DNA of 64,000 bases from Bacillales bacterium UBA4691 (lineage in GTDB: Bacteria; Bacillota_I; Bacilli_A; RFN20; CAG-826): the NCBI GenBank assembly GCA_002404865.1, contig DHKP01000009.1, positions 64,806 to 128,805 on the forward strand, given 5' to 3'. A model generated the notes under the pieces. That model had not been told where the DNA came from. It did no database searches and saw only the letters and a list, made by a program, of their open reading frames with translations. The first letter of the stretch is position 1; each line of letters opens with the position of its first letter. Shown piece by piece: positions 53,213-63,762 of this stretch. The position numbers were made by a program, and so were the translations under genes.

Positions 53213-53631
53213 GTCGAGAAAACCGCCCAAAACCCGGTAAAGCGGTAAAAATAAGGCCTTTACTCGCATGGGGAAATGGGTCGACGCTCAAAATGAACAC
53301 TCATCCTACGTCGTATCGACATGGGAATAGGTGGCCTATACCTGTACACGATGGAAGGAATAGGTCAAAAATCCCGTATTTATCGGCTTTTTAGGAAAAT
53401 CACGATTTCTCGATTTTTTGCGTTTTCGGAGTACGTTGCAACCACACACCCAACCTAGTGACCAGAATTTCGACCGAAAAACGGCTAAAAACGGGGGTAT
53501 AGTTTGATGAAAATGCCAAAAACCGAAAAAGTCATTGCCTTCTCTTTGAAAATAGACCAAGAAAAATTGGGATCAGGTAAAAATAAGAGGACATTTTTGA
53601 TGCGATTCTTATCCTTTTGTTTCATTGAAAG

Positions 53632-53661
53632 TTGACTCAAAAAGTGCTATATTTATATCAT
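53632..53661 (+). promoter_or_regulatory. Candidate sigma-70-type promoter of the island operon
   Basis: TTGACT (53632-53637) and TATCAT (53656-53661) are separated by an 18-nt spacer. AGGAGA at 53675-53680 and the ATG at 53688 follow. Confidence 0.45.
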
Positions 53662-53687: not shown

Positions 53688-53879
53688 ATGACTTACTCTG
53701 AGGCAATCAAGAAATTGCGTAATAGATTGATACTTACACAAACTGAATTTGGCGAATTGCTCGGCGTTTCTTTTGCCACGGTCAATCGTTGGGAAGCAGG
53801 TAGGTTTAAACCAACGACAAAATTGAAAAGAAAGCTTGCACCTTATTTTGAAAAGTATGGAATAGAGGTTGATGAATAA
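53688..53879 (+). CDS. XRE-family HTH protein (controller-like first gene of the operon)
   Basis: 63-aa ORF with the HTH_3 pattern LRNRLILTQTEFGELLGVSFATVNRWEAGRFKP. Its stop overlaps the next start (TAATG). Confidence 0.8.
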   Translation: MTYSEAIKKLRNRLILTQTEFGELLGVSFATVNRWEAGRFKPTTKLKRKLAPYFEKYGIEVDE

Positions 53880-54871
53880 TGACCGAAAACGATATTAATA
53901 TTAAGAGCCTTTATTCATTTTGTCCTGAACTTATTGATATTCTTTTGCACGACAACACAACGAAAAAGAACATCATTTGGGCTACCGATCACTATAAGAA
54001 CAAAGGACTTGGCTATTCCGTTACCGACGAGATAAAGCCTTGCCATTTGACAGGGAAAGTAAGAGCTATTAGGCCAAGAATCGAAAAGAGCAAGGCCGAG
54101 CAAACAAAGAGAAGCAAAGACAATGCAGAGGTTTTCACCCCGTCTTGGATTGTTAACAAGCAAAATAATTTGGTTGATAACGCATGGTTTGGCAAAGAAG
54201 ACGTATTTAATATCGAAAATCCTGATAATTCTTGGATGCCAACCGAGAAAGTTATCTTCGATGGAGGAGACAAGTCCTGGATTGATTATGTCAATGACAT
54301 TCGTTTGGAAGTTTGCTGTGGCGAAGCGCCATACCTTGCATCGAGATATGACACAGTCTCGGGTGAGAAAATCGAAAATAAAAATAGAATAGGCCTCCTT
54401 GATAGAAAATTCAGGGTTATAAATGAGAACGCGACAACTGACGATGAGTGGCTTGATTATGCCATAAGGGCAATCAAGTCTATTTATGGCTATGAATTCC
54501 AGGGTGATAACCTTTTAATCGCACGCGAGAATATCTTATTGGATTTCGTTGACTACTATTTTGAAAGATTTAAGAAATTTCCTGATAAGGATTTGCTAAT
54601 CAGCGTTGCAACAATCATAAGCTGGAATCTTTGGCAAATGGACGGCCTTAAATACGTCGTCCCATTTTCTTGTCATAACGAAGTTGAAAAAGTAGTTCAG
54701 CTTAGTTTATTTGATGAGCCTGAAGAACCCAAGTTAGATATTTGCCCTGGCTGCAAAGCGAATGACCCCAAGAAGCATAATGGCAAGAGATGCTACATCA
54801 TGGATTGGGAAAAGAATAAGAAGATCAAATTTGTGTCATTGATGTGGAGGAATGGCGAATATGTTGGCTGA
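53879..54871 (+). CDS. Methyltransferase-like protein lacking the catalytic (D/N/S)PP(Y/F/W) motif
   Basis: 330-aa ORF with AEVFTPSWIV (motif X of gamma-class N6A MTases) and a degenerate motif-I-like LEVCCGEAPYL. No NPPY-type tetrapeptide occurs anywhere. The C-terminus is Cys-rich (SCHNE...CPGC...KRC). Confidence 0.55.
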   Translation: MTENDINIKSLYSFCPELIDILLHDNTTKKNIIWATDHYKNKGLGYSVTDEIKPCHLTGKVRAIRPRIEKSKAEQTKRSKDNAEVFTPSWIVNKQNNLVDNAWFGKEDVFNIENPDNSWMPTEKVIFDGGDKSWIDYVNDIRLEVCCGEAPYLASRYDTVSGEKIENKNRIGLLDRKFRVINENATTDDEWLDYAIRAIKSIYGYEFQGDNLLIARENILLDFVDYYFERFKKFPDKDLLISVATIISWNLWQMDGLKYVVPFSCHNEVEKVVQLSLFDEPEEPKLDICPGCKANDPKKHNGKRCYIMDWEKNKKIKFVSLMWRNGEYVG

Positions 54872-56576
54872 GAATGAAAAAAACGACGCTTTAGAAGCGG
54901 AAGGGAAATATAAAACCCAAGTTGAATCTGCAACCGACTACATTGAGAACTTCGATATTCTCGAAACAATCACCAATGTTGGAAACGATGAAGTGTTCAC
55001 TCCAAGAAAGACTTGCGACATGATTTTAGATTCTCTTCCGGAAGAGGTCTGGCACAATCCGGATTACAAATGGTTGAATCCGGCCACAAAAAACGGAATT
55101 TTCGAGAGAGAAATTGCAATAAGGTTGGATAATGGCCTGAAAGACATCATTCCAGATATCGAGCAAAGAAGAAAACATATTCTTCAAAACATGATCTATT
55201 CTATTGGCCAAACTAGATTTACTGCTAACGTTGCTAGAAGAACGGTTTATTACTGTTCCCAAGCCAATAGAAAATGTGACGGAATCAAAGCTAAAGATGG
55301 TCACTACGTCAATGGTTATGCGATTGGCAACGGAAGCTGGTTCGACAATGAAGAAGGCAACATCAAAACCCCAAATATCAACCATACGTTTGTAGATGAA
55401 AAAGGAAGACTGATGCCTAATTCTTGCTCCGATGAAGAAAAGAAAAAATATAGATGCAAATATTGTGGAATCAACGGCGGATCTGCTTATAACGACGCCC
55501 ATCAGCGTGAGACATATGCTTATGAATTCATCCATTTTAGCGGGGACGAATTATTAAAGCATTTGCAGGATAGATTCTTTGGAGGTAATAGGAAAATGAA
55601 ATTCGACATCATAATTGGCAATCCGCCTTATCAGCTGAGCACTAATCAAGGTGGCACTCAAGCGACACCGATTTATCAAAATTTTGTGAAGCAGGCGGTT
55701 GGCTTAAATCCGAAATATATAAGCATGATCATCCCTTCTAAATGGTTCGCTGGTGGAATGTCAACGCTAGATGAGTTAAGAGCGTATATGATGTCGTGCA
55801 ATAAAATTAAATCGATGACCGATTTCTCGAATGCAAAAGAATGTTTTCCTACTAATAGCGTTGGAGGCGGAGTTTGTTATTTTCTATGGGACCGTGATTA
55901 TGATGGGCCATGCACTTTCACCAACGTGATTAATGGAAAAGCTCAAACGGAAATTAGAGAATTAAACGAGTTCCCCGTTTTAGTTAGATTAAATAAGGCG
56001 GTTTCAATCCTTAAAAAGATAAAGACACTGAACGAAGAAAACATGGTTGATTCTGGAAGCCCATTAATGCCTTTTGGACTTTCATCTGATGCCCGAGGAG
56101 AAAAAAGTCAAAGTAAAGAGAATTCAATTAAATTATATGCAAGCAATGGAATTACATTTATTTCAGAACATCAAATCAAAAAAGGTCAAGATTTGCTTAA
56201 CAAATATAAAGTTTTGGTTGGGATTCTAGGAGCTGAGCACGCTTTGGAACCTGACAAGGATGGTAAGTTTAGAATAATTACATCCTCTTTGAAAGTTATA
56301 GGGCCTCAAGAAGCTTGCACACACTCGTATTTTACTATTGGAAAATTCGATAATTTAGGGGAAGCCCAAAATTTATGCAATTATCTAAAAACAAAATTTG
56401 CTCGTTTCTTAATTTTACTAGCTATGACATCAACACATCTTTCTAGGAACGTTTTGCTCTTTTTGCCTAAACAAAATTTTGATTCAGTTTGGACTGATCA
56501 AAAACTTTATAAAAAATATGGTTTTAGTGTGGATGAAATCAATCTTATTGAGGAAACAATGAAGGAGATGAAGTAA
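54852..56576 (+). CDS. Eco57I-type (gamma-class) N6-adenine DNA methyltransferase
   Basis: 574-aa ORF that overlaps the previous gene by 20 nt. It has DEVFTP (motif X), WLNPATKNGIF (divergent motif I) and IIIGNPPYQ (NPPY encoded at 55620-55631). A Cys cluster includes RCKYCG. The C-terminal WTDQKLYKKYGFSVDEINLIEE tail is as I recall for this MTase family. Confidence 0.8.
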   Translation: MANMLAENEKNDALEAEGKYKTQVESATDYIENFDILETITNVGNDEVFTPRKTCDMILDSLPEEVWHNPDYKWLNPATKNGIFEREIAIRLDNGLKDIIPDIEQRRKHILQNMIYSIGQTRFTANVARRTVYYCSQANRKCDGIKAKDGHYVNGYAIGNGSWFDNEEGNIKTPNINHTFVDEKGRLMPNSCSDEEKKKYRCKYCGINGGSAYNDAHQRETYAYEFIHFSGDELLKHLQDRFFGGNRKMKFDIIIGNPPYQLSTNQGGTQATPIYQNFVKQAVGLNPKYISMIIPSKWFAGGMSTLDELRAYMMSCNKIKSMTDFSNAKECFPTNSVGGGVCYFLWDRDYDGPCTFTNVINGKAQTEIRELNEFPVLVRLNKAVSILKKIKTLNEENMVDSGSPLMPFGLSSDARGEKSQSKENSIKLYASNGITFISEHQIKKGQDLLNKYKVLVGILGAEHALEPDKDGKFRIITSSLKVIGPQEACTHSYFTIGKFDNLGEAQNLCNYLKTKFARFLILLAMTSTHLSRNVLLFLPKQNFDSVWTDQKLYKKYGFSVDEINLIEETMKEMK

Positions 56577-56577
56577 C

Positions 56578-59500
56578 ATGGAAGAAATTTTAGTTACAAA
56601 ATCTCCCGATATTAATCAAACGGATACAATTCAGTATCACGAAAACAAAACAATCTTTAGTTTGGATGACAAAAACAATACCGACGGTTCACTGATTCTC
56701 ATTTATATGTATTTGTTGCCTAGATTCCAAACGCATGGAATCAAGGTAGGCATGACCAAATGCAGAATCGGAGAGACTTTTTGGCATGCAATTAAATCTA
56801 GGATACACGATCAGCAACACGAATTAGCGCTTACCGATGATCAATATCAAAAATACGGATTGGAAAGAGAGATCGTCTATTGGGGCATTTGCCTCGATGC
56901 AAAAAACGATTCCTTTAAAGATTATTCCGTCCATAACGAAATCAAAAAGACAAACGCTGGGATTGTGGAGAAGGAGCAGGAGTGGTTCACGAATGTTCCG
57001 ACCGACGAGCTCATCGGCATCTTCAATTCATTGAGACACACGGATGAAAACAAAGAAATATATACTCCAAGGAAAGAGCAGCAGGAATGCATCGACGCCA
57101 TGAGCGAGTATTTTGCCGAGAACCCAAACGGCCGATTCCTTTTGAACTGCAAAATGAGATTCGGCAAATCGTTCACGACCTACAAGTACTGCGAAGACCA
57201 TAATCTAGAGAGAATATTGATCCTTACCTTCGTACCAGCTGTTGAATCTTCTTGGCGTGAAGACTTAAGACATATTAAGAAAAGCTACAGGTATTTCACC
57301 GACGATAACCTAAGAAGAAGCGACTTCATGCTGGGTTTTATTCAAGATCCTTACGTCTTGTTCCTTTCGCTTCAAAATTACTTGGGCAAAGAAAAGAACG
57401 CAGATGTCAAAGCCAAGATTCAGCAATTGCAGAACATCGATTGGGACTTGGTCATCCTCGACGAATACCATTTCGGCGCATGGAACCAAAGAACACAAGG
57501 AACCCTGAAAGTCAAAGAGGAAAAGAGCGAAGACCTCGATAGCAACTACCAAGAGCAATTGAAGAAGACTGGCGACATCATCCAGAAATTCAATATCAAG
57601 ACTAGACAGACCATTTGCTTGTCCGGAACCCCGTTTAAGGCGTTGGCCAGGGGCGAGTTCACGGACAAATCCTCTTTCACGTACTCCTTTTTCGATGAGC
57701 AGAGAAACAAATATCCTAATAGCGACAAAGGCGATTTCTCTGTCGTGAATCCAAGTTACGCCGCCTTTCCAGACATTAAGATATTCGGATACAACATGTC
57801 CAGGCTTTTCGGCAATCTGACGGCTTCCGTTTTCTCAGAAGATAGATTGCTCACAAAAAAATATTTCTCTTTGAACAAATTCTTCGAAACAAGGCAGGAG
57901 AACAACCCGAATGAGCCATGCACGTTCATTTACGAGGATGAGATCAAGAAATGGCTTGAGATCATAAAGGGACGTTCCACTTTTGGAGATAAGTTTCCTT
58001 ATTCCAACCCACAGATGCTTCAAAACAATGTTCATACATTGTGGCTCATGCCGACAGTCAAATCGTGCAAGGCGATGGAAAAGCTTTTGAAGTCGGATGA
58101 ATACTTTTCCAGATATCAGATTATCAATCTATCTCAGGATGGCGTGGGTGCCGGAAACGACGCTTACGAATATTTGATGAACGGCATCACCGAATCCGAG
58201 AACACCAATAAGCTCGGGTCGATTGCGATAACGGTCAATAAGCTGACCATTGGTGTTACGGTTAAGAAATGGTCCAGCGTGTTCGTGCTGAAGGATTTGG
58301 CCAGCCCTGAGCAGTATTTTCAGGCAATTTTCAGAATACAGACACCATATGTTGTGAATGGGGTAATTGAGAAGAAAGATGGATACGTCTACGATTTTAA
58401 TATCGATAGGGCCAGTGCCTTGCTTTTGAAGTACGCCGAGCAATCGGAGAATGAGCAGACGACAAAACTTCAGATTGCGAAGCTGATTGTTAAATACATG
58501 CCGATTTTTGTGAATGGCGACATGTCTGACCCGATCTCAGAACAAGTGTTCTACGAGTTGGCGCAATATGGCGATTCCAGTGGGATTCCTTTGTCGAGGA
58601 AAATCACAGACACTACCAAAACCACTAGAATGCTCGACGAAGAGACGATGGCTGAGATGCTCAACGACAAAGAGGTCAGTGACATCATCAAGAGGGTTTT
58701 CGCGCATGCAAAATTCGGGAAAACGAAGACAAGGACTGTCCCGGCCAAGCCTGAAGATGGCTTTGATACGAAAATAGCGCAGGAAGGCAGGAACAAAGGC
58801 TACGAGCTTGGTCAGCAAGACTATCAAAATTATGTTGACTATGACGATAATCAAGTCCAAACGGAATTTGAAAAAGCCCTTTTCGATTACATCAAAGAAT
58901 ACTGCCCGAAGGATTATGATCAGGCAAAAGCCGCTTGGTATGCCAATGGGTTCAAAAAAGGTTACGAAGCTGGCGTCAACGCCCCCATCAAAAAAGAGCA
59001 ATGTGGCCACGACGACGGTGTTAAGTTCGTTGATGTGATAAAGAAAAGATTTAGCAAGGACATCAAATATACCAGCAACACTAGAGTGATGATTGATAAT
59101 TTTGTAAAAGCCTATTTGAACGACACAAAGAATATCCCTGTTAAATATAGAGGCATGCTTTACAGAAGATGGTATTGCGATTCTTTTAGAAGAGCCGTGA
59201 AAACCAATCTAACACCTGTTGTCGACCCAAAAAACGGCGAGACGATTGAAGATGCCGATAATGTATTGAAGCATTTACTCGCAAGATTGTTTGAATTCTT
59301 ATATATCAGCGTATACCGCGAGACCACCTTTATGGAAATCTTCAATAATGCCGATCCTAATGTTTTCTTAGAAGCGGTTGGCATCACTAAAAAAGATTTC
59401 GAAATACTCAACAAATACAAAGTCTTCCAAGAGGATGTTTTAAATAACTACATACATGATTTCTTCGTGAATGAATCTTTAGGAAGTAAGTTGGACTTAA

Positions 59501-59877
59501 AGGATGAGGAAGTCCAAAAACAATATAGAAATAGTTTTGATTGGTTTGGATTCGGACTCGAAAGTGACGATGCCACGCAAGAAGAAATATTGGAAAACAA
59601 AGATGTCAACTCTATGAAAAATGATTTTATAGAAAAAACGGTAATAAATGTTGATTCTGAAAATCCTGAAGAAGAACCACGAGAGGATGAAGATGCCAAC
59701 CAATCGGAACCCACTTTGCTCGACAAAATCAAAGACCTTCTTTCTACAAAACAAATGAAGTCTTCGAAGATTGCCTTAGAATTGGGTGTTTCTAAAAAGG
59801 AAATCAACCAAGTTTTATACGCTCATAGTGATATTTTTGTTAAAGATTTATTTTTCAATTGGAAGTTAAAAAGATAA
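56578..59877 (+). CDS. GIY-YIG/T5orf172-like nuclease + SF2 (ResIII/SNF2-like) helicase + C-terminal Z-alpha-like winged helix protein
   Basis: 1099-aa ORF starting 1 nt after the MTase stop. Residues 38-150 read LILIYMY..GIKVGMT..KSRI..VHNEI..EQEWF (T5orf172 pattern). Helicase motifs are RFGKSFT (194-200), LDEYH (294-298), LSGTP (348-352) and QAIFRIQTP. An acidic stretch follows. The final 56 aa read ..SSKIALELGVSKKEINQVLY...NWKL. Confidence 0.75.
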   Translation: MEEILVTKSPDINQTDTIQYHENKTIFSLDDKNNTDGSLILIYMYLLPRFQTHGIKVGMTKCRIGETFWHAIKSRIHDQQHELALTDDQYQKYGLEREIVYWGICLDAKNDSFKDYSVHNEIKKTNAGIVEKEQEWFTNVPTDELIGIFNSLRHTDENKEIYTPRKEQQECIDAMSEYFAENPNGRFLLNCKMRFGKSFTTYKYCEDHNLERILILTFVPAVESSWREDLRHIKKSYRYFTDDNLRRSDFMLGFIQDPYVLFLSLQNYLGKEKNADVKAKIQQLQNIDWDLVILDEYHFGAWNQRTQGTLKVKEEKSEDLDSNYQEQLKKTGDIIQKFNIKTRQTICLSGTPFKALARGEFTDKSSFTYSFFDEQRNKYPNSDKGDFSVVNPSYAAFPDIKIFGYNMSRLFGNLTASVFSEDRLLTKKYFSLNKFFETRQENNPNEPCTFIYEDEIKKWLEIIKGRSTFGDKFPYSNPQMLQNNVHTLWLMPTVKSCKAMEKLLKSDEYFSRYQIINLSQDGVGAGNDAYEYLMNGITESENTNKLGSIAITVNKLTIGVTVKKWSSVFVLKDLASPEQYFQAIFRIQTPYVVNGVIEKKDGYVYDFNIDRASALLLKYAEQSENEQTTKLQIAKLIVKYMPIFVNGDMSDPISEQVFYELAQYGDSSGIPLSRKITDTTKTTRMLDEETMAEMLNDKEVSDIIKRVFAHAKFGKTKTRTVPAKPEDGFDTKIAQEGRNKGYELGQQDYQNYVDYDDNQVQTEFEKALFDYIKEYCPKDYDQAKAAWYANGFKKGYEAGVNAPIKKEQCGHDDGVKFVDVIKKRFSKDIKYTSNTRVMIDNFVKAYLNDTKNIPVKYRGMLYRRWYCDSFRRAVKTNLTPVVDPKNGETIEDADNVLKHLLARLFEFLYISVYRETTFMEIFNNADPNVFLEAVGITKKDFEILNKYKVFQEDVLNNYIHDFFVNESLGSKLDLKDEEVQKQYRNSFDWFGFGLESDDATQEEILENKDVNSMKNDFIEKTVINVDSENPEEEPREDEDANQSEPTLLDKIKDLLSTKQMKSSKIALELGVSKKEINQVLYAHSDIFVKDLFFNWKLKR

Positions 59878-59885
59878 ATTTTAAT

Positions 59886-60833
59886 ATGGATAAAAAGATT
59901 AGATGCATAAATGAGTTTTATAAAACAAAGATCTATAAAGGACCAAAGTATCTATATAAATATAGACCCTTTGACGAACATACTTTTGATATGCTCGAAA
60001 ATGATTATCTATATCTTTGCAAAGCTAAAAATCTTGACGATCCTACTGAGTGCGCAGCAACCATTGATTTTAATAAATTCTATGATCTAGAAACTAACAA
60101 CGTTAAGAGAGAATGCGTCCAATTTATTATTGAAAAGCTTAGGCCGTATACAAGCGAAGAAAATTATCAAATGATTCTAACTATTATGGGCTCCATGATG
60201 AATAGGAACGGAACCATAAGGCCTAATTATTTGCTCGATTGTCAATCACAACTGCAAGCTCTTTTACCAGAAGACTATGATGTCGCACCATTTATAAACT
60301 GGATTGTAGGCATACCTGAAAAATTGGATTCCCCTGAAATCAAGCCTCAAATTTATACGTTGATCAAAGCAATGTACAACGCGAGGGAGGAGCTTGGAAT
60401 TTGTTCTTTAAGTGCAAATAAAAATGATGAAACAATGTGGAAAGAATACGCTGCTAATGGGATGGGATATTGTGTCGAGTACGATATGACTGATTATGAT
60501 TATCTTAACCTTTTGTTTCCTGTGATATATGTTTCTGAAAACGAGAGAGAAACCGACATAACAACAAAGATTCTTCTATCGTTTATTGAGAATATGATTG
60601 AAGGTTTCTCTCACGGAACTATTGAAGCCGATGTTTCCCAATGTATAACACTCTTTCTTACGAAATACGACAAATGGAAATATCAAAATGAATGGCGATT
60701 GCTTGGAGATGCGGCTTCAAAGCTAAAGGCACCAAAAATCAATGCAATTTATCTTGGAAAGCGAGTATCCAAAACTAATCTCAATGCAATGAATAATTTC
60801 TCTAAAGGTAAATTCAAAATGATTAAAGATTAG
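59886..60833 (+). CDS. DUF2971-like protein
   Basis: It has the signature YLYKYRPFDEHTFDMLENDYLYLCKAKNLDDPTEC (LYKYR.f....l..l....lw.s....fNDP.E pattern). The ATG at 59886, 9 nt after the upstream stop, is preferred to the track start at 59859. Confidence 0.65.
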   Translation: MDKKIRCINEFYKTKIYKGPKYLYKYRPFDEHTFDMLENDYLYLCKAKNLDDPTECAATIDFNKFYDLETNNVKRECVQFIIEKLRPYTSEENYQMILTIMGSMMNRNGTIRPNYLLDCQSQLQALLPEDYDVAPFINWIVGIPEKLDSPEIKPQIYTLIKAMYNAREELGICSLSANKNDETMWKEYAANGMGYCVEYDMTDYDYLNLLFPVIYVSENERETDITTKILLSFIENMIEGFSHGTIEADVSQCITLFLTKYDKWKYQNEWRLLGDAASKLKAPKINAIYLGKRVSKTNLNAMNNFSKGKFKMIKD

Positions 60834-60836
60834 GAG

Positions 60837-62870
60837 GTGAAACAATTGGATGACATTATAGAAGAAATAAAAAAGAGCTGTCCATTTAAGACGGAAGCAG
60901 AACTATTTGACTATTTAAAAACAACGTTAACAGGATACGATTTAATCGATTTATTAGAAAAGCTGAGTTGCCTCAGGTTTTTCTCACTTACCAGTTTTTT
61001 GACGTATTCTGAAACTGAAAGAAACGGGGTAAGGAAAATATTTGATGAAGGCTTTTCTTTCCTCGTTCCATTTTTGTTTTGCTTTAAAATAGAAGAAGGC
61101 GATGAAAAAATTAGATATGACAAAATCAAATCGATTTGTCAAAATATTTCCTATTTTTTATTTGTGACACGGATGAACAAACGTGGGAATGACAAAATTG
61201 ATTATATCCAAAATAATTTAACGGATTTGTTCGCTGATTTTAAAGCTATTCCTGTGGGTTGTATATTAGAGTGTGAAGACGATTTAATGATTCAAAAATA
61301 CGATGTCACATCTTCGGACTTGCTCAAAGAATTACTAATAGTTTTTCCAAAAAGAATTTTCAGCCCTAAAACAAAAATTCAAGCTTTCGAGCCAAGTTAT
61401 TTTATCGATAATTTTTCTTCAATAATAGATACAAGTGGTTTCATTATTAGCAAAGATTGCAAGTCATATAATTTATGTAACGATTTATCCGCTGGGCTAG
61501 GAACTTTAGGAATAGGAAGCTTTAATGTTTCCAATCCTTTATCTACTATTAATTTATCTCGCAAGCTTTTTATAAAAAAGAACGGTATATTGTATAACTT
61601 GAATGATGATTTGATATGCGGAAGATTAAATAGATCGGTTGAATCATTGTTTTCTTCACAGAAAGAAAAAGACGAGTGGAGAATTAAATATAAGGAAAAA
61701 ACCGAATCTATAGTCAAGGAAGTTTTTGAAAAATATTTAATTGGTGGGGTTTATTACGAAAACAATTTTTATAAAGGAAAAAATGGGAATTTTTGCGAAA
61801 ACGATGGCATGTTTGTTTACCATGATTTTGCGATTTGCATAGAAATAAAAGGGAATAAATTTAATCCTGATCCAGTAAGCGAAAACTCTGAAAAAGTAGA
61901 GGATTCTTATAAAAATGTTTTAAGTAAAGCTAAGGCACAAGTTATAAGAATTAGAGAAGAGATTGAGCAACAACAAAACTTTACAATCTATGATTCCAAA
62001 AGGAAGCCCATATTTCATTTCGATAACCTTAATACAAAAAACATCATAGGGATTTGCATCTATTTTGAGGATATAGGGACTTATCTTGCCGATTTTGCCA
62101 AAGAGCCGGAGCGGATAATTCATATTTCGTTTTATGACCTATTGATGGTATTTGAATACCTGGAAAACCCGCTATTAATTATCAAATATTTATTTGAGCG
62201 CAGCGGACCTATTAAAAATGAGAAAATATATCTAAACGATGAAATGATGTTTTTAAGCCTCTTTAGGGATTGCATACATTTGAACTCATATATTAATGAT
62301 CAAAACATTTATAAACAGCAAAATATAGGCAATATATTTTTTCCAAACGACGAATTCGGAATGGAAATTGAACTGTATTTTATGGGTGGTAGATCAAAAC
62401 CCCCAATTATGATTAATGAGTTTGTAAATCGAATCGTTAGCACAGACGATTACTCGGCGATTGATGACAACTTATTTACTGGATTGTTCACTATTCTTTG
62501 TGAGTCAAAAGAAAAATGGGAAGCCATAGAGATAAAATTTAAGGAAAAGAATAATTCAAAATCAAGGATGCCGATTGTTTTGTCCTATTTTAATAAAACT
62601 GGTAGTGCTTTTGCTTTGATGTTTATTTCGCGAGGGCACAATCCTTATCAAAAAAGACAAAGTATAGCATTTGCAAAAAGATATTTTGAATATCGTGAAC
62701 AGGTGGGCACTATTTACCTTATTTCGGTAGGTAAAGATTATAGCAATTACTTAAAGATAAATAAACAGGACGAATTTTTAAAAGACATTGATGATAAAAG
62801 CCTGCTATCTGATATCCGCTTTAGTATCGTCAGTCACACTCAATTTTTTGATGATGAGATAGTGAATTAA
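60837..62870 (+). CDS. Large uncharacterised protein with a central PD-(D/E)xK-like motif
   Basis: 677-aa ORF. The GTG at 60837 abuts GGAGG with no spacer, so the TTG at 60846 may be the real start. The candidate nuclease core is ENDGMFVYHDFAICIEIKGNK (about nt 61796-61852). The gene is very AT-rich and no other family was recognised. Confidence 0.55.
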   Translation: MKQLDDIIEEIKKSCPFKTEAELFDYLKTTLTGYDLIDLLEKLSCLRFFSLTSFLTYSETERNGVRKIFDEGFSFLVPFLFCFKIEEGDEKIRYDKIKSICQNISYFLFVTRMNKRGNDKIDYIQNNLTDLFADFKAIPVGCILECEDDLMIQKYDVTSSDLLKELLIVFPKRIFSPKTKIQAFEPSYFIDNFSSIIDTSGFIISKDCKSYNLCNDLSAGLGTLGIGSFNVSNPLSTINLSRKLFIKKNGILYNLNDDLICGRLNRSVESLFSSQKEKDEWRIKYKEKTESIVKEVFEKYLIGGVYYENNFYKGKNGNFCENDGMFVYHDFAICIEIKGNKFNPDPVSENSEKVEDSYKNVLSKAKAQVIRIREEIEQQQNFTIYDSKRKPIFHFDNLNTKNIIGICIYFEDIGTYLADFAKEPERIIHISFYDLLMVFEYLENPLLIIKYLFERSGPIKNEKIYLNDEMMFLSLFRDCIHLNSYINDQNIYKQQNIGNIFFPNDEFGMEIELYFMGGRSKPPIMINEFVNRIVSTDDYSAIDDNLFTGLFTILCESKEKWEAIEIKFKEKNNSKSRMPIVLSYFNKTGSAFALMFISRGHNPYQKRQSIAFAKRYFEYREQVGTIYLISVGKDYSNYLKINKQDEFLKDIDDKSLLSDIRFSIVSHTQFFDDEIVN

Positions 62871-63040
62871 AGCAAATTGATAACGCTGATTAAATCACAA
62901 TAGTTGCATTGCAACAATTTACAAATTTTCCTTAAGGTTGCTAGACTTACATCGTCGTTGCTTTTCATCAAATCATAATCTTCAGAGCTTATACCAGATT
63001 TGGATATGAGCTCTTTTTTCGTCATGTCTTTTTCTTTCAT
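62867..63040 (-). CDS. Small XRE-family HTH protein
   Basis: This gene is below the track cutoff. Hand translation gives MKEKDMTKKELISKSGISSEDYDLMKSNDDVSLATLRKICKLLQCNYCDLISVINLL (57 aa). Its start overlaps the upstream gene's stop (ATGA at 63037-63040). It converges on the 677-aa gene with a 4-nt overlap of their stops. Confidence 0.75.
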   Translation of the reverse strand: MKEKDMTKKELISKSGISSEDYDLMKSNDDVSLATLRKICKLLQCNYCDLISVINLL

Positions 63041-63561
63041 GAGAGACCATAAACCATCATAAGATGTATATCCAAAATCCTCGTTATTTTGCTTAATATC
63101 ATCGCAAAAGGCCTTTTTTTCCTTCTGATTATGCGTTGGATGTGGTCGTTTAAAAGCGCGGTGACGTCTTTGGTGATGTAGCCTTTTCTAACAGTCAAAC
63201 CAATGGCTCTAAAGTCTTCTATCATGCACATTTTCGCTTTGCCGTCTAGCTCGCAATACTCAATGGCGTCCTCTAAGCCTTCCTGACAGATGAGTGAAGG
63301 GCTGAGGGACAAAGCATCGCGATAGGAGATGTCTTTGCCGCTTTTCGGGTTCATGAGCTTTCTTGCGTACTCCCCTTTTTGGATAGCTTCGACAATTCCG
63401 GCTTTTTCGTTCTCGAAATCCTTGATGAACCATGTCCATATCGTCTCATAGACCATGGCTGCGTTGATCCTTTCCCCAGGTGAGGCAATCCTCAGAATCG
63501 CATTGTAGAGATTCTTCTCCAAGATTTCGAAAATGGATCCGATGGTGGCGCTTGCTTTCAT
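63037..63561 (-). CDS. Hypothetical protein (GC-richer, foreign-looking), translationally coupled to the small HTH
   Basis: The ATG at 63561 (MKASATIG) is preceded by AAGGGGGAA and is preferred to the track start at 63624. No family was recognised. Confidence 0.5.
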   Translation of the reverse strand: MKASATIGSIFEILEKNLYNAILRIASPGERINAAMVYETIWTWFIKDFENEKAGIVEAIQKGEYARKLMNPKSGKDISYRDALSLSPSLICQEGLEDAIEYCELDGKAKMCMIEDFRAIGLTVRKGYITKDVTALLNDHIQRIIRRKKRPFAMILSKITRILDIHLMMVYGLS

Positions 63562-63762
63562 AATTCCGTTCCCCCTTTGAAGCACGGCCGAAATCAGTCC
63601 CGTCTGATCTCGTTTCAAAAACAAGCTCTAATGCAATGACATTGCGGAACGATAGTGATCCGTGATGGATGTTTCCTCAATTTTAACATGAATGGCACGA
63701 TTTCCGAATTGCAAGGAGTCTAAAGCTTTGGAAACAGCCCATCGAAAAGGGAGGACACGCTT

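Follow-up and report, generated by a model that had tools for sequence, protein, structure and literature searches.

The 1099-aa protein encoded at 56578..59877, hereafter HEL, is quite likely the restriction subunit, that is, the motor and nuclease, of an ATP-dependent restriction-modification (R-M) system of an uncultured gut bacterium of Bacilli/Mollicutes type, as judged from its sequence and from its neighbours. The last 54 residues form a predicted winged helix that is very likely homologous to Zα domains. Together, a restriction subunit that carries an accessory Zα-like nucleic-acid grip is the explanation we consider reasonably probable. The features of the locus are as follows.

53688..53879, + strand: XRE-type HTH protein at the head of the operon (Pfam HTH_3, 1.5e-10)
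53879..54871, + strand: 330-aa protein, second conserved partner of HEL (PADLOC 'MTase_II' model PDLC03390, 1.7e-114)
54852..56576, + strand: Eco57I-type N6-adenine methyltransferase of 574 aa, partner of HEL (Pfam Eco57I, 2e-26)
56578..59877, + strand: whole open reading frame, putative restriction/translocase subunit HEL (1099 aa, ATG start; from the ORF list)
56701..57027, + strand: T5orf172/GIY-YIG-superfamily nuclease-like domain, residues ~42-150 (profile and homologue matches)
57055..58527, + strand: SF2 helicase-like motor, residues ~160-650 (motifs, PADLOC alignment, Pfam ResIII in orthologues)
58528..59556, + strand: conserved C-terminal region, residues ~651-993 (high conservation)
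59557..59712, + strand: acidic variable linker, residues 994-1045 (net charge -15 in HEL)
59713..59874, + strand: Zα-like winged helix, residues 1046-1099, the last 54 aa (AF2 model, profile and fold searches)

HEL lies in a methyltransferase operon

The original prediction described 56578-59877 as a helicase with a T5orf172/GIY-YIG-like N-terminus and a Zα-like C-terminus, and the open reading frame and all of the quoted motifs were confirmed from the ORF list and the motif positions. The operon runs in the order XRE regulator, 330-aa methyltransferase-like protein, Eco57I-type methylase and HEL, with gene ends that overlap or abut; the stop of the XRE gene overlaps the start of the gene for the 330-aa partner. 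Promoter-like sites are found at 53625-53661, upstream of the XRE gene, whose product is likely a C-protein-like controller. A tRNA or integration-site signal was considered and rejected, since the window, the whole 64-kb stretch of DNA that was analysed, has no tRNAs.

Searches with HEL returned 852 homologues at E<=1e-5, and identity is at least 64% among the 120 listed. The PADLOC REase_MTase_IIG model matches HEL at 7e-30. NCBIfam gave no match. An Eco57I-type methylase gene is directly 5' of the HEL gene in 8/8 related loci that reach upstream, the 330-aa partner was found in 6/10 related genome loci, and a Variovorax plasmid carries the identical gene order. In the Pediococcus pentosaceus pRS5 enzyme WP_012660355.1 a HEL homologue and the methylase are joined, collinearly, in one polypeptide. 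HEL 42-967 aligns to 17-930 of this enzyme, and the product of the gene upstream of it is 40% identical to the 330-aa partner (E 4e-65). The operon with its two methyltransferases and the collinear fused enzyme are the evidence that points to HEL as a restriction subunit. The fusion of a sensor-like tail to a helicase-nuclease, suggested as an unusual effector design, appears to be the restriction subunit of an R-M operon and not a stand-alone effector.

Several known systems resemble HEL. Fused T5orf172-helicase-Eco57I methylase enzymes ('Type IIG' in PADLOC/REBASE-derived models) share its PADLOC model and the upstream 300-aa partner. Compared with the fused Pediococcus enzyme, the methylase of the HEL system has a gene of its own, which precedes that of HEL, and HEL has gained a 37-residue N-terminal extension and the Zα-like tail with its acidic linker. 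Type ISP (LlaGI/LlaBIII), Type I HsdR and Type III Res enzymes likewise combine a nuclease and an SF2 motor with an N6-adenine methylase, and the domain order of Type ISP and HsdR is nuclease, motor, connector, as in HEL (PMC4666363). In contrast to these enzymes, the predicted HEL nuclease is T5orf172/GIY-YIG-type and not Mrr/PD-(D/E)xK. DnmA(YeeA)-YeeB-YeeC clusters, which are found in defence islands, specify a methylase, an SF2 helicase and a T5orf172/GIY-YIG protein (PMC9973331). Compared by the activities encoded, they bring together the same three as the HEL operon, whereas their helicase and T5orf172 protein are separate and their methylase is MmeI-like. The cluster in B. subtilis showed no restriction activity and was reported inactive (PMC9973331), a point against restriction by HEL.

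Nuclease-like domain, motor and probable connector

On profile and homologue matches, the N-terminus is a T5orf172 (GIY-YIG superfamily) domain in which a set of candidate catalytic residues is invariant. GIKVGMT occupies residues 54-60, VHNEI 118-122 and EWF 135-137. Invariance was assessed in 25 orthologues that share 57-86% identity with HEL; Y43, Y45, K56, G58, R75, E82, H119 and E135-W136-F137 are the same in all of them. Pfam T5orf172 (PF10544) matches HEL below threshold (E 0.089, 13.8 bits vs a cut-off of 20, model positions 3-98/101), and the matches in 17/24 orthologues are also weak and below threshold (best E 6.5e-4). An 834-aa Variovorax homologue scores 32 bits against the cut-off of 20 at its residues 16-119. 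A single continuous BLASTP alignment to this protein (E 2e-75) extends from HEL residue 42 through the domain into the motor, with HEL residues 42-146 aligned to Variovorax residues 16-113. The two proteins have IYxY, K[IV]G[YM]T, R..[ED]Q, FKD...H and EWF in common, and NCBI names homologues including the Variovorax protein 'GIY-YIG nuclease family protein'. The T5orf172 assignment, weak for HEL alone, is convincing because the Variovorax homologue passes the cut-off and aligns continuously. An N-terminus that fails to match GIY-YIG/T5orf172 profiles had been named as evidence against the prediction, and this outcome was not seen.

Other comparisons of the N-terminus gave less. With hhalign, the N-terminal alignment matched the single Variovorax domain weakly (pairwise E 0.015, probability 3%), with FKD..H and EWF lined up. 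The AF2 model (pLDDT 79, with weak confidence at residues 110-160) has BFVD fold matches enriched for T5orf172, MUG113 and GIY-YIG proteins at E 0.03-1.4. Foldseek against the PDB returned no GIY-YIG structure, only ribosomal-protein noise, the N-terminal profile found nothing among PDB sequences, and a PHROGs search found nothing useful.

The middle of HEL is, by its motifs, a divergent SF2 motor with all motifs intact. RFGKSFT (residues 194-200), LDEYH (294-298), LSGTP (348-352) and QAIFRIQTP (582-590) were all located within the ~165-650 region predicted to hold SF2 motifs, and G196-K197-S198, D295-E296-Y297-H298, S349-G350-T351 and Q582/R586/Q588/T589 are invariant in the 25 orthologues. 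Positions 159-600 of the PADLOC REase_MTase_IIG model align to HEL residues 165-599, and HEL orthologues carry a precomputed Pfam ResIII assignment. Against PDB sequences, whole HEL and the 25-member family profile gave no match beyond one that was spurious, so that no solved relative of the motor can be named; even with the family profile, HEL matched no solved restriction motor.

Residues ~651-993 are collinear with the segment that joins motor to methylase in the fused Pediococcus enzyme and probably form a coupler or methylase-docking part. They have no match in Pfam or the PDB. A PD-(D/E)xK nuclease hidden in residues 650-993 was considered and rejected, as there was no profile match and no convincing motif.

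Probable kinship of the tail with Zα domains

A single-sequence phmmer search of HEL against the PDB gave Zα at a marginal E of 0.6-1. Pfam z-alpha (PF02295) matched at E 0.04 with whole HEL and 6e-4 with the 62-aa tail (20.2 bits vs a cut-off of 21). The similarity becomes significant with a profile of 35 orthologous tails, 28/35 of which match Pfam z-alpha (best E 3.6e-6). Among PDB sequences the tail profile found almost only Zα domains (ADAR1, ORF112, PKZ, ZBP1, E3 and I73R; E from 4e-4). An exhaustive search of 1.84 billion proteins with a profile built only from helicase tails recovered Pfam-confirmed z-alpha+RHIM (ZBP1-like) proteins (P0172, E 1.7e-7; P0262, E 6.1e-5), Pfam-confirmed z-alpha+kinase (PKZ-like) proteins (E 3.6e-7 and 1.7e-5) and a single-domain 'PPLW' Zα (E 3.5e-7). 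Among the 150 best tail relatives, z-alpha is the Pfam family found most often, and hhalign paired the tail with true Zα at 98.4% probability. Both the HMMER and the hhalign alignments end before the wing. PHROGs gave only weak HTH matches to the tail, and a word-indexed homologue search with the tail profile gave only short fragments of the same family, from which nothing further was learnt about architectures. A cluster look-up yielded hardly any names.

The AF2 model of the tail (pLDDT 87) has the order α1-β1-α2-α3-β2-β3, in which β1 is a two-residue strand in the DSSP line. Its best Foldseek match is the ORF112 Zα 4wcg (TM 0.74/0.75, rmsd 1.5 Å, 55 columns, 34% identity). MarR/ArsR folds are interleaved with Zα at similar scores, and all E-values are >0.006. 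Because the domain is so small, Foldseek is unable to separate the two. A generic MarR/Lrp-type winged helix had been named as the outcome that would speak against a Zα-like tail; Zα was instead the top family in the Pfam, PDB-sequence and Foldseek tests, with the interleaving noted for the last.

KKEINQVLY is found at residues 1073-1081 and FFNWKL at 1092-1097. The ADAR1 helix KKEINRVLY was quoted correctly in the prediction and stands opposite KKEINQVLY in the PDB alignments. K1073 (nt 59794), N1077 (59806), Y1081 (59818) and W1095 (59860) are the equivalents of the Zα contact residues K169/N173/Y177/W195 of ADAR1. K1073 and W1095 are invariant in the 25 orthologues, N1077 is at least 90% conserved, and Y1081 is the majority residue, with F/N/T/H/C in some. 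Of 150 wider relatives, 141 have K/R, 142 have N and 118 have Y at these positions, and all 98 that align at the Trp have W. The ADAR1 wing prolines P192/P193, which contact the Z backbone, are replaced by Phe-Phe in the HEL wing (D-L-F-F-N-W), and in wider bacterial relatives position W-2 is aromatic. Wing prolines are not universal in Zα, since some Pfam-verified ZBP1-like domains also lack them. Of the Zα-specific residues, the Lys/Asn/Tyr/Trp set is conserved, with the Tyr variable among orthologues, and the wing prolines are absent.

Compared with the Zα domains (PF02295) of ADAR1, ZBP1/DAI, PKZ, vaccinia E3, CyHV-3 ORF112 and ASFV I73R, the tail has the same predicted order of helices and strands, the recognition-helix motif K-K-[ED]-[IV]-N-x-[IV]-L-Y and a Trp in the wing strand. 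It differs in being bacterial, in its place at the C-terminus of a predicted restriction motor, and in a recognition helix about one turn shorter. The wing is also shorter (F-F-N-W vs P-P-x-W), with 14 residues from Tyr to Trp, counted by eye, vs 18 in ADAR1.

The linker that tethers the tail includes the acidic stretch ENPEEEPREDEDANQSE at residues 1028-1044. Across 90 orthologues the linker has a median length of 55 aa and a net charge of -11 (range -27 to -6), whereas the tail domain is basic (+3 to +8). The tail is absent in ~13% of the orthologues scored and was lost repeatedly, suggesting that it is accessory and tunes the enzyme rather than being essential. Its presence does not track that of the 330-aa partner, as no correlation was observed across 10 loci.

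Possible roles of the tail

We propose that the methylase would locate an asymmetric site and mark it. Where the mark is missing, the motor would spend ATP moving or looping DNA and the GIY-YIG-type domain would cut. The tethered Zα-like domain would act as an accessory nucleic-acid grip that reads shape, not sequence. Its most likely target would be underwound or left-handed DNA, either behind the translocating motor or in invading DNA; behind helicases and polymerases the DNA is left negatively supercoiled, which favours Z-DNA (PMC11293857). Such a grip would help anchoring, processivity or cleavage licensing, and the acidic linker may mask it until DNA is engaged.

To our knowledge, the literature treats Zα domains as a feature of eukaryotes and large DNA viruses, and our literature search turned up no restriction enzyme or bacterial helicase reported to carry a Zα-type domain. 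Related Zα-like domains are fused elsewhere to UvrD, SNF2, AAA_11, TnsA-like and HIRAN domains, and some to sigma-70 regions. Some of the fusions are in defence-type loci; one adjoins BREX-type genes and another a second helicase. Bacterial winged helices were compared with Zα before, in sigma-54-type regulators ('Zα-like', PMC11298590) and in arsR-type folds ('Zα-related', PMC11293857). Where the HEL-tail family, which is joined to DNA motors and nucleases, keeps Asn and Tyr, the bacterial 'Zα-like' domains assayed to date carry Ser and Asn, and they failed to bind Z-DNA (PMC11298590).

True Z-form specificity of the HEL tail is less likely than not. A rather unlikely reading is that the tail is a working prokaryotic Zα, which would recognise DNA that is left-handed or strongly underwound (or Z-RNA) and couple this signal to restriction. 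It would then belong to a larger bacterial Zα clade, as yet undescribed, whose members have repeatedly been joined to motors and nucleases of defence (UvrD, SNF2, SF1-Vsr and TnsA-like, one of them beside BREX-type genes). It is quite possible, if short of an even chance, that the tail descends with Zα and is an ordinary non-specific B-DNA clamp that raises DNA affinity with no preference for left-handed or underwound DNA. The basic charge of the domain, the missing wing prolines, a wing that profile methods leave unaligned, the variable Tyr, the MarR/ArsR-type B-DNA binders interleaved with Zα in the fold search and the failure of the bacterial domains tested so far to bind Z-DNA (PMC11298590) all agree with a clamp. 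However, the most conserved positions across a wide family are the Asn (142/150) and Trp (98/98 aligned); a non-specific clamp would hardly account for this hallmark of Zα, and the failed bacterial cases lack exactly these residues.

An improbable reading is that the tail serves protein binding or regulation and does not read DNA during restriction; it might dock on the methylase, bind its own linker, repress the operon or act as a decoy for phage DNA-mimic anti-restriction proteins. Many orthologues do without the tail, sigma-70 regions are fused to some of its relatives, and the always-acidic linker could be a built-in pseudo-substrate; acidic D/E-rich tails that compete for Zα have been described (PMC6294567). 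Against this, fusion partners elsewhere are mostly DNA motors and nucleases and conservation falls on the residues of the nucleic-acid contact set; a role as operon repressor was rejected, as the operon is headed by its own dedicated XRE gene. Finally, the Zα resemblance could have arisen by chance or convergence within the huge winged-helix class, with the KKEINxVLY match to human ADAR1 a coincidence. The non-significant single-sequence scores, the weak Foldseek E-values and a domain of only ~54 aa would allow this, yet in 1.84e9 proteins a helicase-tail profile reaches ZBP1-like and PKZ-like proteins verified by Pfam, with E as low as ~1e-7, z-alpha is the leading Pfam family among the best relatives, and the hhalign probability is high. 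This reading is disfavoured and very improbable.

With this locus a split family of GIY-YIG-type restriction motors is documented, and no biochemical study of it was found in the literature. A bacterial family that keeps the full Lys/Asn/Tyr/Trp set on DNA-cutting enzymes or on DNA-twisting ones (four kinds of helicase), some in defence-type loci, hints that the Zα sensor fold is also used in bacterial defence. If the tail binds neither Z-form nor underwound DNA, it defines residues that are insufficient for Z-binding. If it binds Z-form or underwound DNA, it would offer a simple bacterial system for the reading of torsional stress or DNA shape in immunity, would provide new small Z-binding reagents and would bear on the origin of Z-nucleic-acid sensing. 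Were the tail a working prokaryotic Zα, Z-form sensing by ADAR1, ZBP1 and PKZ would join the innate-immune modules of animals that have roots, or a deep parallel, in the anti-phage defences of bacteria.

Operon context and family of the helicase

The helicase (1099 aa) is encoded on the + strand at 56578..59877 and begins with ATG. Opposite-strand ORFs within the gene, as given by the ORF listing of the window, reach at most 157 aa and none was taken as a gene. The original prediction divided the protein into a T5orf172/GIY-YIG-like module, an SF2 motor and a Zα-like C-terminus, and every motif it quoted was found: GIKVGMT (residues 54-60), VHNEI (118-122) and EWF (135-137) at the N-terminus; RFGKSFT (194-200), LDEYH (294-298), LSGTP (348-352) and QAIFRIQTP (582-590) in the motor; and an acidic run (1028-1044), KKEINQVLY (1073-1081) and FFNWKL (1092-1097) at the C-terminus. 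This domain reading stands, and the restriction-modification (R-M) operon around the gene had been missed.

Genes surrounding the helicase gene
53688-53879, + strand: XRE-type HTH gene, upstream of the helicase
53879-54871, + strand: 330-aa protein, PADLOC 'MTase_II' model (1.7e-114)
54852-56576, + strand: Eco57I-type methylase, 574 aa (Pfam, 2e-26)
59859-60833, + strand: DUF2971 gene, start overlapping the helicase stop; PADLOC candidate family PDC-S31 (8.8e-32), phrog_1762 (1.8e-33)
60837-62870, + strand: 677-aa protein, no family match
62867-63040, - strand: HTH_26 (Cro/C1-type) protein, 57 aa, overlapping the 195-aa gene
63037-63624, - strand: 195-aa protein, no family

The ends of the three upstream genes and the helicase gene overlap or abut. 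One fused 'Type IIG' model in PADLOC matches the helicase with its helicase part and the methylase with its methylase part. In 8/8 related genome loci that extend far enough upstream, the methylase gene immediately precedes the helicase gene, and the gene for the 330-aa partner is found in 6/10. A Variovorax plasmid has the identical order of hypothetical protein, Eco57I methylase and GIY-YIG/helicase protein. In Pediococcus pRS5, a 1417-aa protein joins the equivalent of helicase residues 42-967 to the methylase in one polypeptide, preceded by a 306-aa protein with 40% identity to the 330-aa partner. The operon partners, the Variovorax gene order and the fused Pediococcus enzyme therefore indicate that the helicase is the restriction subunit, a split representative of an R-M family that is widespread and uncharacterised. 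The DnmA-YeeB-YeeC system is a functionally similar trio of methylase, SF2 helicase and T5orf172 protein; it is reported to be inactive in B. subtilis, and deletions in a Vibrio to raise phage sensitivity (PMC9973331).

The 330-aa partner is a candidate methyltransferase. It had no match in Pfam or NCBIfam, and inspection by eye revealed FTP and CCGEAPY-type motifs and no (D/N)PP(Y/F) motif. It is retained beside both split and fused forms of the enzyme.

Downstream, the DUF2971 gene is probably separate defence cargo, since it adjoins the helicase gene in only 1/10 related loci (L006). The minus-strand pair (62867-63040 and 63037-63624) is convergent and may represent a small regulatory or toxin-antitoxin-like module at the island's edge.

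A search at E<=1e-5 returned 852 helicase homologues; the 120 listed are 64-93% identical to the helicase and almost all metagenomic. The 10 species-representative genome loci belong to MAGs of uncultured gut Bacilli, Mollicutes, Anaeroplasmataceae and Clostridia, together with one contig assigned to Gemmiger formicilis. Per-column identity in a 25-member alignment is 72%, and the motor and N-terminal motifs are all invariant. Annotated plasmids encode remote homologues (26-30% identity) under the name 'DEAD/DEAH box helicase', 'GIY-YIG nuclease family protein' or 'Eco57I restriction-modification methylase domain-containing protein'. Remote nuclease-motor homologues (24-30% identity) are also encoded by human-gut phage genomes (PV036449.1, MT835565.1, MT835780.1 and the Prevotella Lak megaphages), and in those records they carry no annotation.

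The N-terminal nuclease-like domain

The Pfam T5orf172 model matched the helicase alone at E 0.089, spanning nearly the whole model, and matched 17/24 orthologues (best E 6.5e-4). Residues 16-119 of the Variovorax homologue matched T5orf172 at 32 bits against a curated cut-off of 20, and MUG113 as well. A single BLASTP alignment between the two proteins (E 2e-75) runs from helicase residue 42 through the T5orf172 domain into the motor. The N-terminal domains compared have IYxY, K[IV]G[YM]T, R..[ED]Q, FKD...H and EWF in common. With these motifs and the continuous alignment to an above-cut-off domain, the predicted T5orf172/GIY-YIG-like module was accepted. The AF2 model (pLDDT 79) contains strands 39-46 and 55-62, helices 68-77 and 87-94, strand 96-105 and helix 117-125, elements that we take to form a GIY-YIG-like β-β-α-β-α core. 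A PDB structure search with this model gave no match; its best BFVD matches were enriched for T5orf172, MUG113 and GIY-YIG proteins, with weak E-values. Because Y43, Y45, R75, H119 and E135 are invariant, we infer that the domain is catalytically active.

Ahead of this domain lies a conserved extension (residues 1-37, nt 56578-56688), predicted as three short β-strands (pLDDT about 87-90). N13, D16 and N33 are invariant in it among aligned orthologues, and the Variovorax and Pediococcus homologues lack it.

Relationship of the C-terminal tail to Zα

A profile, A1, was built from 35 orthologous tails (the C-terminal winged helix, residues 1046-1099 in the helicase). Among PDB sequences, A1 matched ADAR1 Zα, ORF112, PKZ, ZBP1, E3 and I73R, with only a few stray matches besides. 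In Pfam, z-alpha matched 28/35 members (best E 3.6e-6) and no other family matched as many; the helicase tail itself reached 20.2 bits, the cut-off being 21. The AF2 tail model is confident (pLDDT 87), with its secondary structure in Zα order, and its best Foldseek match is the ORF112 Zα/Z-DNA complex (TM 0.74, rmsd 1.5 Å, 34% identity). As predicted, Zα is the leading family in the Pfam, PDB-sequence and Foldseek searches. MarR/ArsR folds are interleaved with the many Zα entries in the Foldseek list; therefore fold alone does not discriminate.

The strongest test was an exhaustive HMMER search of 1.84 billion representatives with A1, which gave 258 matches at E<=1e-3. Pfam-confirmed proteins among these include z-alpha+RHIM (ZBP1-like) proteins (E 1.7e-7 and 6.1e-5), proteins with two z-alpha domains and a kinase (PKZ-like; 3.6e-7 and 1.7e-5), one protein with multiple Zα domains, and 'PPLW' proteins with a single Zα. 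The commonest Pfam family in the best 150 of the 258 is z-alpha (38 members). Aligning the tail alignment to one of true Zα domains with hhalign gave 98.4% probability over 41 columns, from α1 to α3. Because of the profile, Pfam, exhaustive-search and hhalign results, homology of the tail to Zα is well supported.

The ADAR1 helix KKEINRVLY, as given in the original prediction, is right according to PDB alignments, and the claimed equivalents of the ADAR1 Asn, Tyr and wing Trp are present in the tail. ADAR1 K169 and W195 correspond to K1073 and W1095, both invariant among orthologues. N173 corresponds to N1077, kept in at least 90%, and Y177 to Y1081, the majority residue, with F/N/T/H/C variants. 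The best 150 wider relatives, whose counts are not fully independent because they were chosen by similarity to A1, have K/R in 141, N in 142, Y in 118 (H in 15) and W in 98/98 aligned. The near-identity to human ADAR1 is partly luck, given the shared motif K-K-[ED]-[IV]-N-x-[IV]-L-Y. The tail wing reads F-F-N-W whereas that of ADAR1 reads P-P-x-W, and the Tyr-to-Trp spacing, counted by eye, is 14 residues in the tail and 18 in ADAR1. Profile methods left the wing unaligned in comparisons of the tail with Zα; wing prolines are also missing from some Pfam-verified ZBP1-like domains.

Distribution and possible role of the tail

The linker before the tail is acidic in every case (median 55 aa, net charge -11) and the tail domain is basic (median +7). 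About 14/105 orthologues have no tail. Since their closest tail-bearing relatives are 74-99% identical, the tail has been lost recurrently, although frameshifts or assembly breaks may account for a few cases. The tail is missing at 5/10 genome loci, with no separate tail ORF nearby, and comparisons with the distant Variovorax and Pediococcus plasmid homologues did not reveal one. It is an accessory acquired within the gut clade of the helicase. One 1255-aa orthologue, P0118, has a 210-aa linker between core and Zα-like tail that looks like an inserted extra domain; its precomputed Pfam match is PF06094, which we take to be the GGACT/AIG2-like family.

In other prokaryote-type proteins a Zα-like domain occurs in one or two copies, mostly N-terminal. 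It is fused to UvrD-type helicases, an SNF2 helicase, a TnsA-like nuclease, HIRAN, sigma-70 regions and an AAA_11 helicase with a cluster mate named Vsr endonuclease. One unfused relative is encoded on a 283-kb contig, surrounded by housekeeping genes of bacterial type. At loci L016/L017 the gene for a UvrD helicase with tandem Zα-like domains precedes one for a 1065-aa DEAD helicase; at L018 a Zα-like domain fused to a TnsA-like nuclease is encoded beside PAPS-reductase and BrxC/PglY-type genes, an arrangement similar to a BREX-type locus. These are likely defence operons. The fusions and the few loci sampled suggest that bacteria have a Zα-like clade associated with DNA motors and nucleases.

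In the mechanism we propose, the methylase would recognise and mark the site, and the motor would translocate where DNA is unmarked, with cleavage by the GIY-YIG-type domain. Helicase residues 651-967 would link motor to methylase, as in the fused Pediococcus enzyme, and the tail, flexibly tethered by the acidic linker, would be a grip on nucleic acid that senses shape. Negative supercoils left by motors favour Z-DNA, so it would be plausible for a translocase to carry a Zα-type reader. This effect of motors is described in published work that also proposes ArsR-type 'Zα-related' folds (PMC11293857). Neither Asn nor Tyr is present in the bacterial 'Zα-like' domains of sigma-54-type regulators, which fail to bind Z-DNA (PMC11298590), whereas the tail has equivalents of both. 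A literature search of incomplete coverage turned up no account of a restriction enzyme or bacterial helicase with a Zα-type domain, and prior description is possible. The helicase is best read as the restriction subunit of an R-M system, bearing a Zα-family winged helix as an accessory. That this could lead to something more important is credible but unproven.
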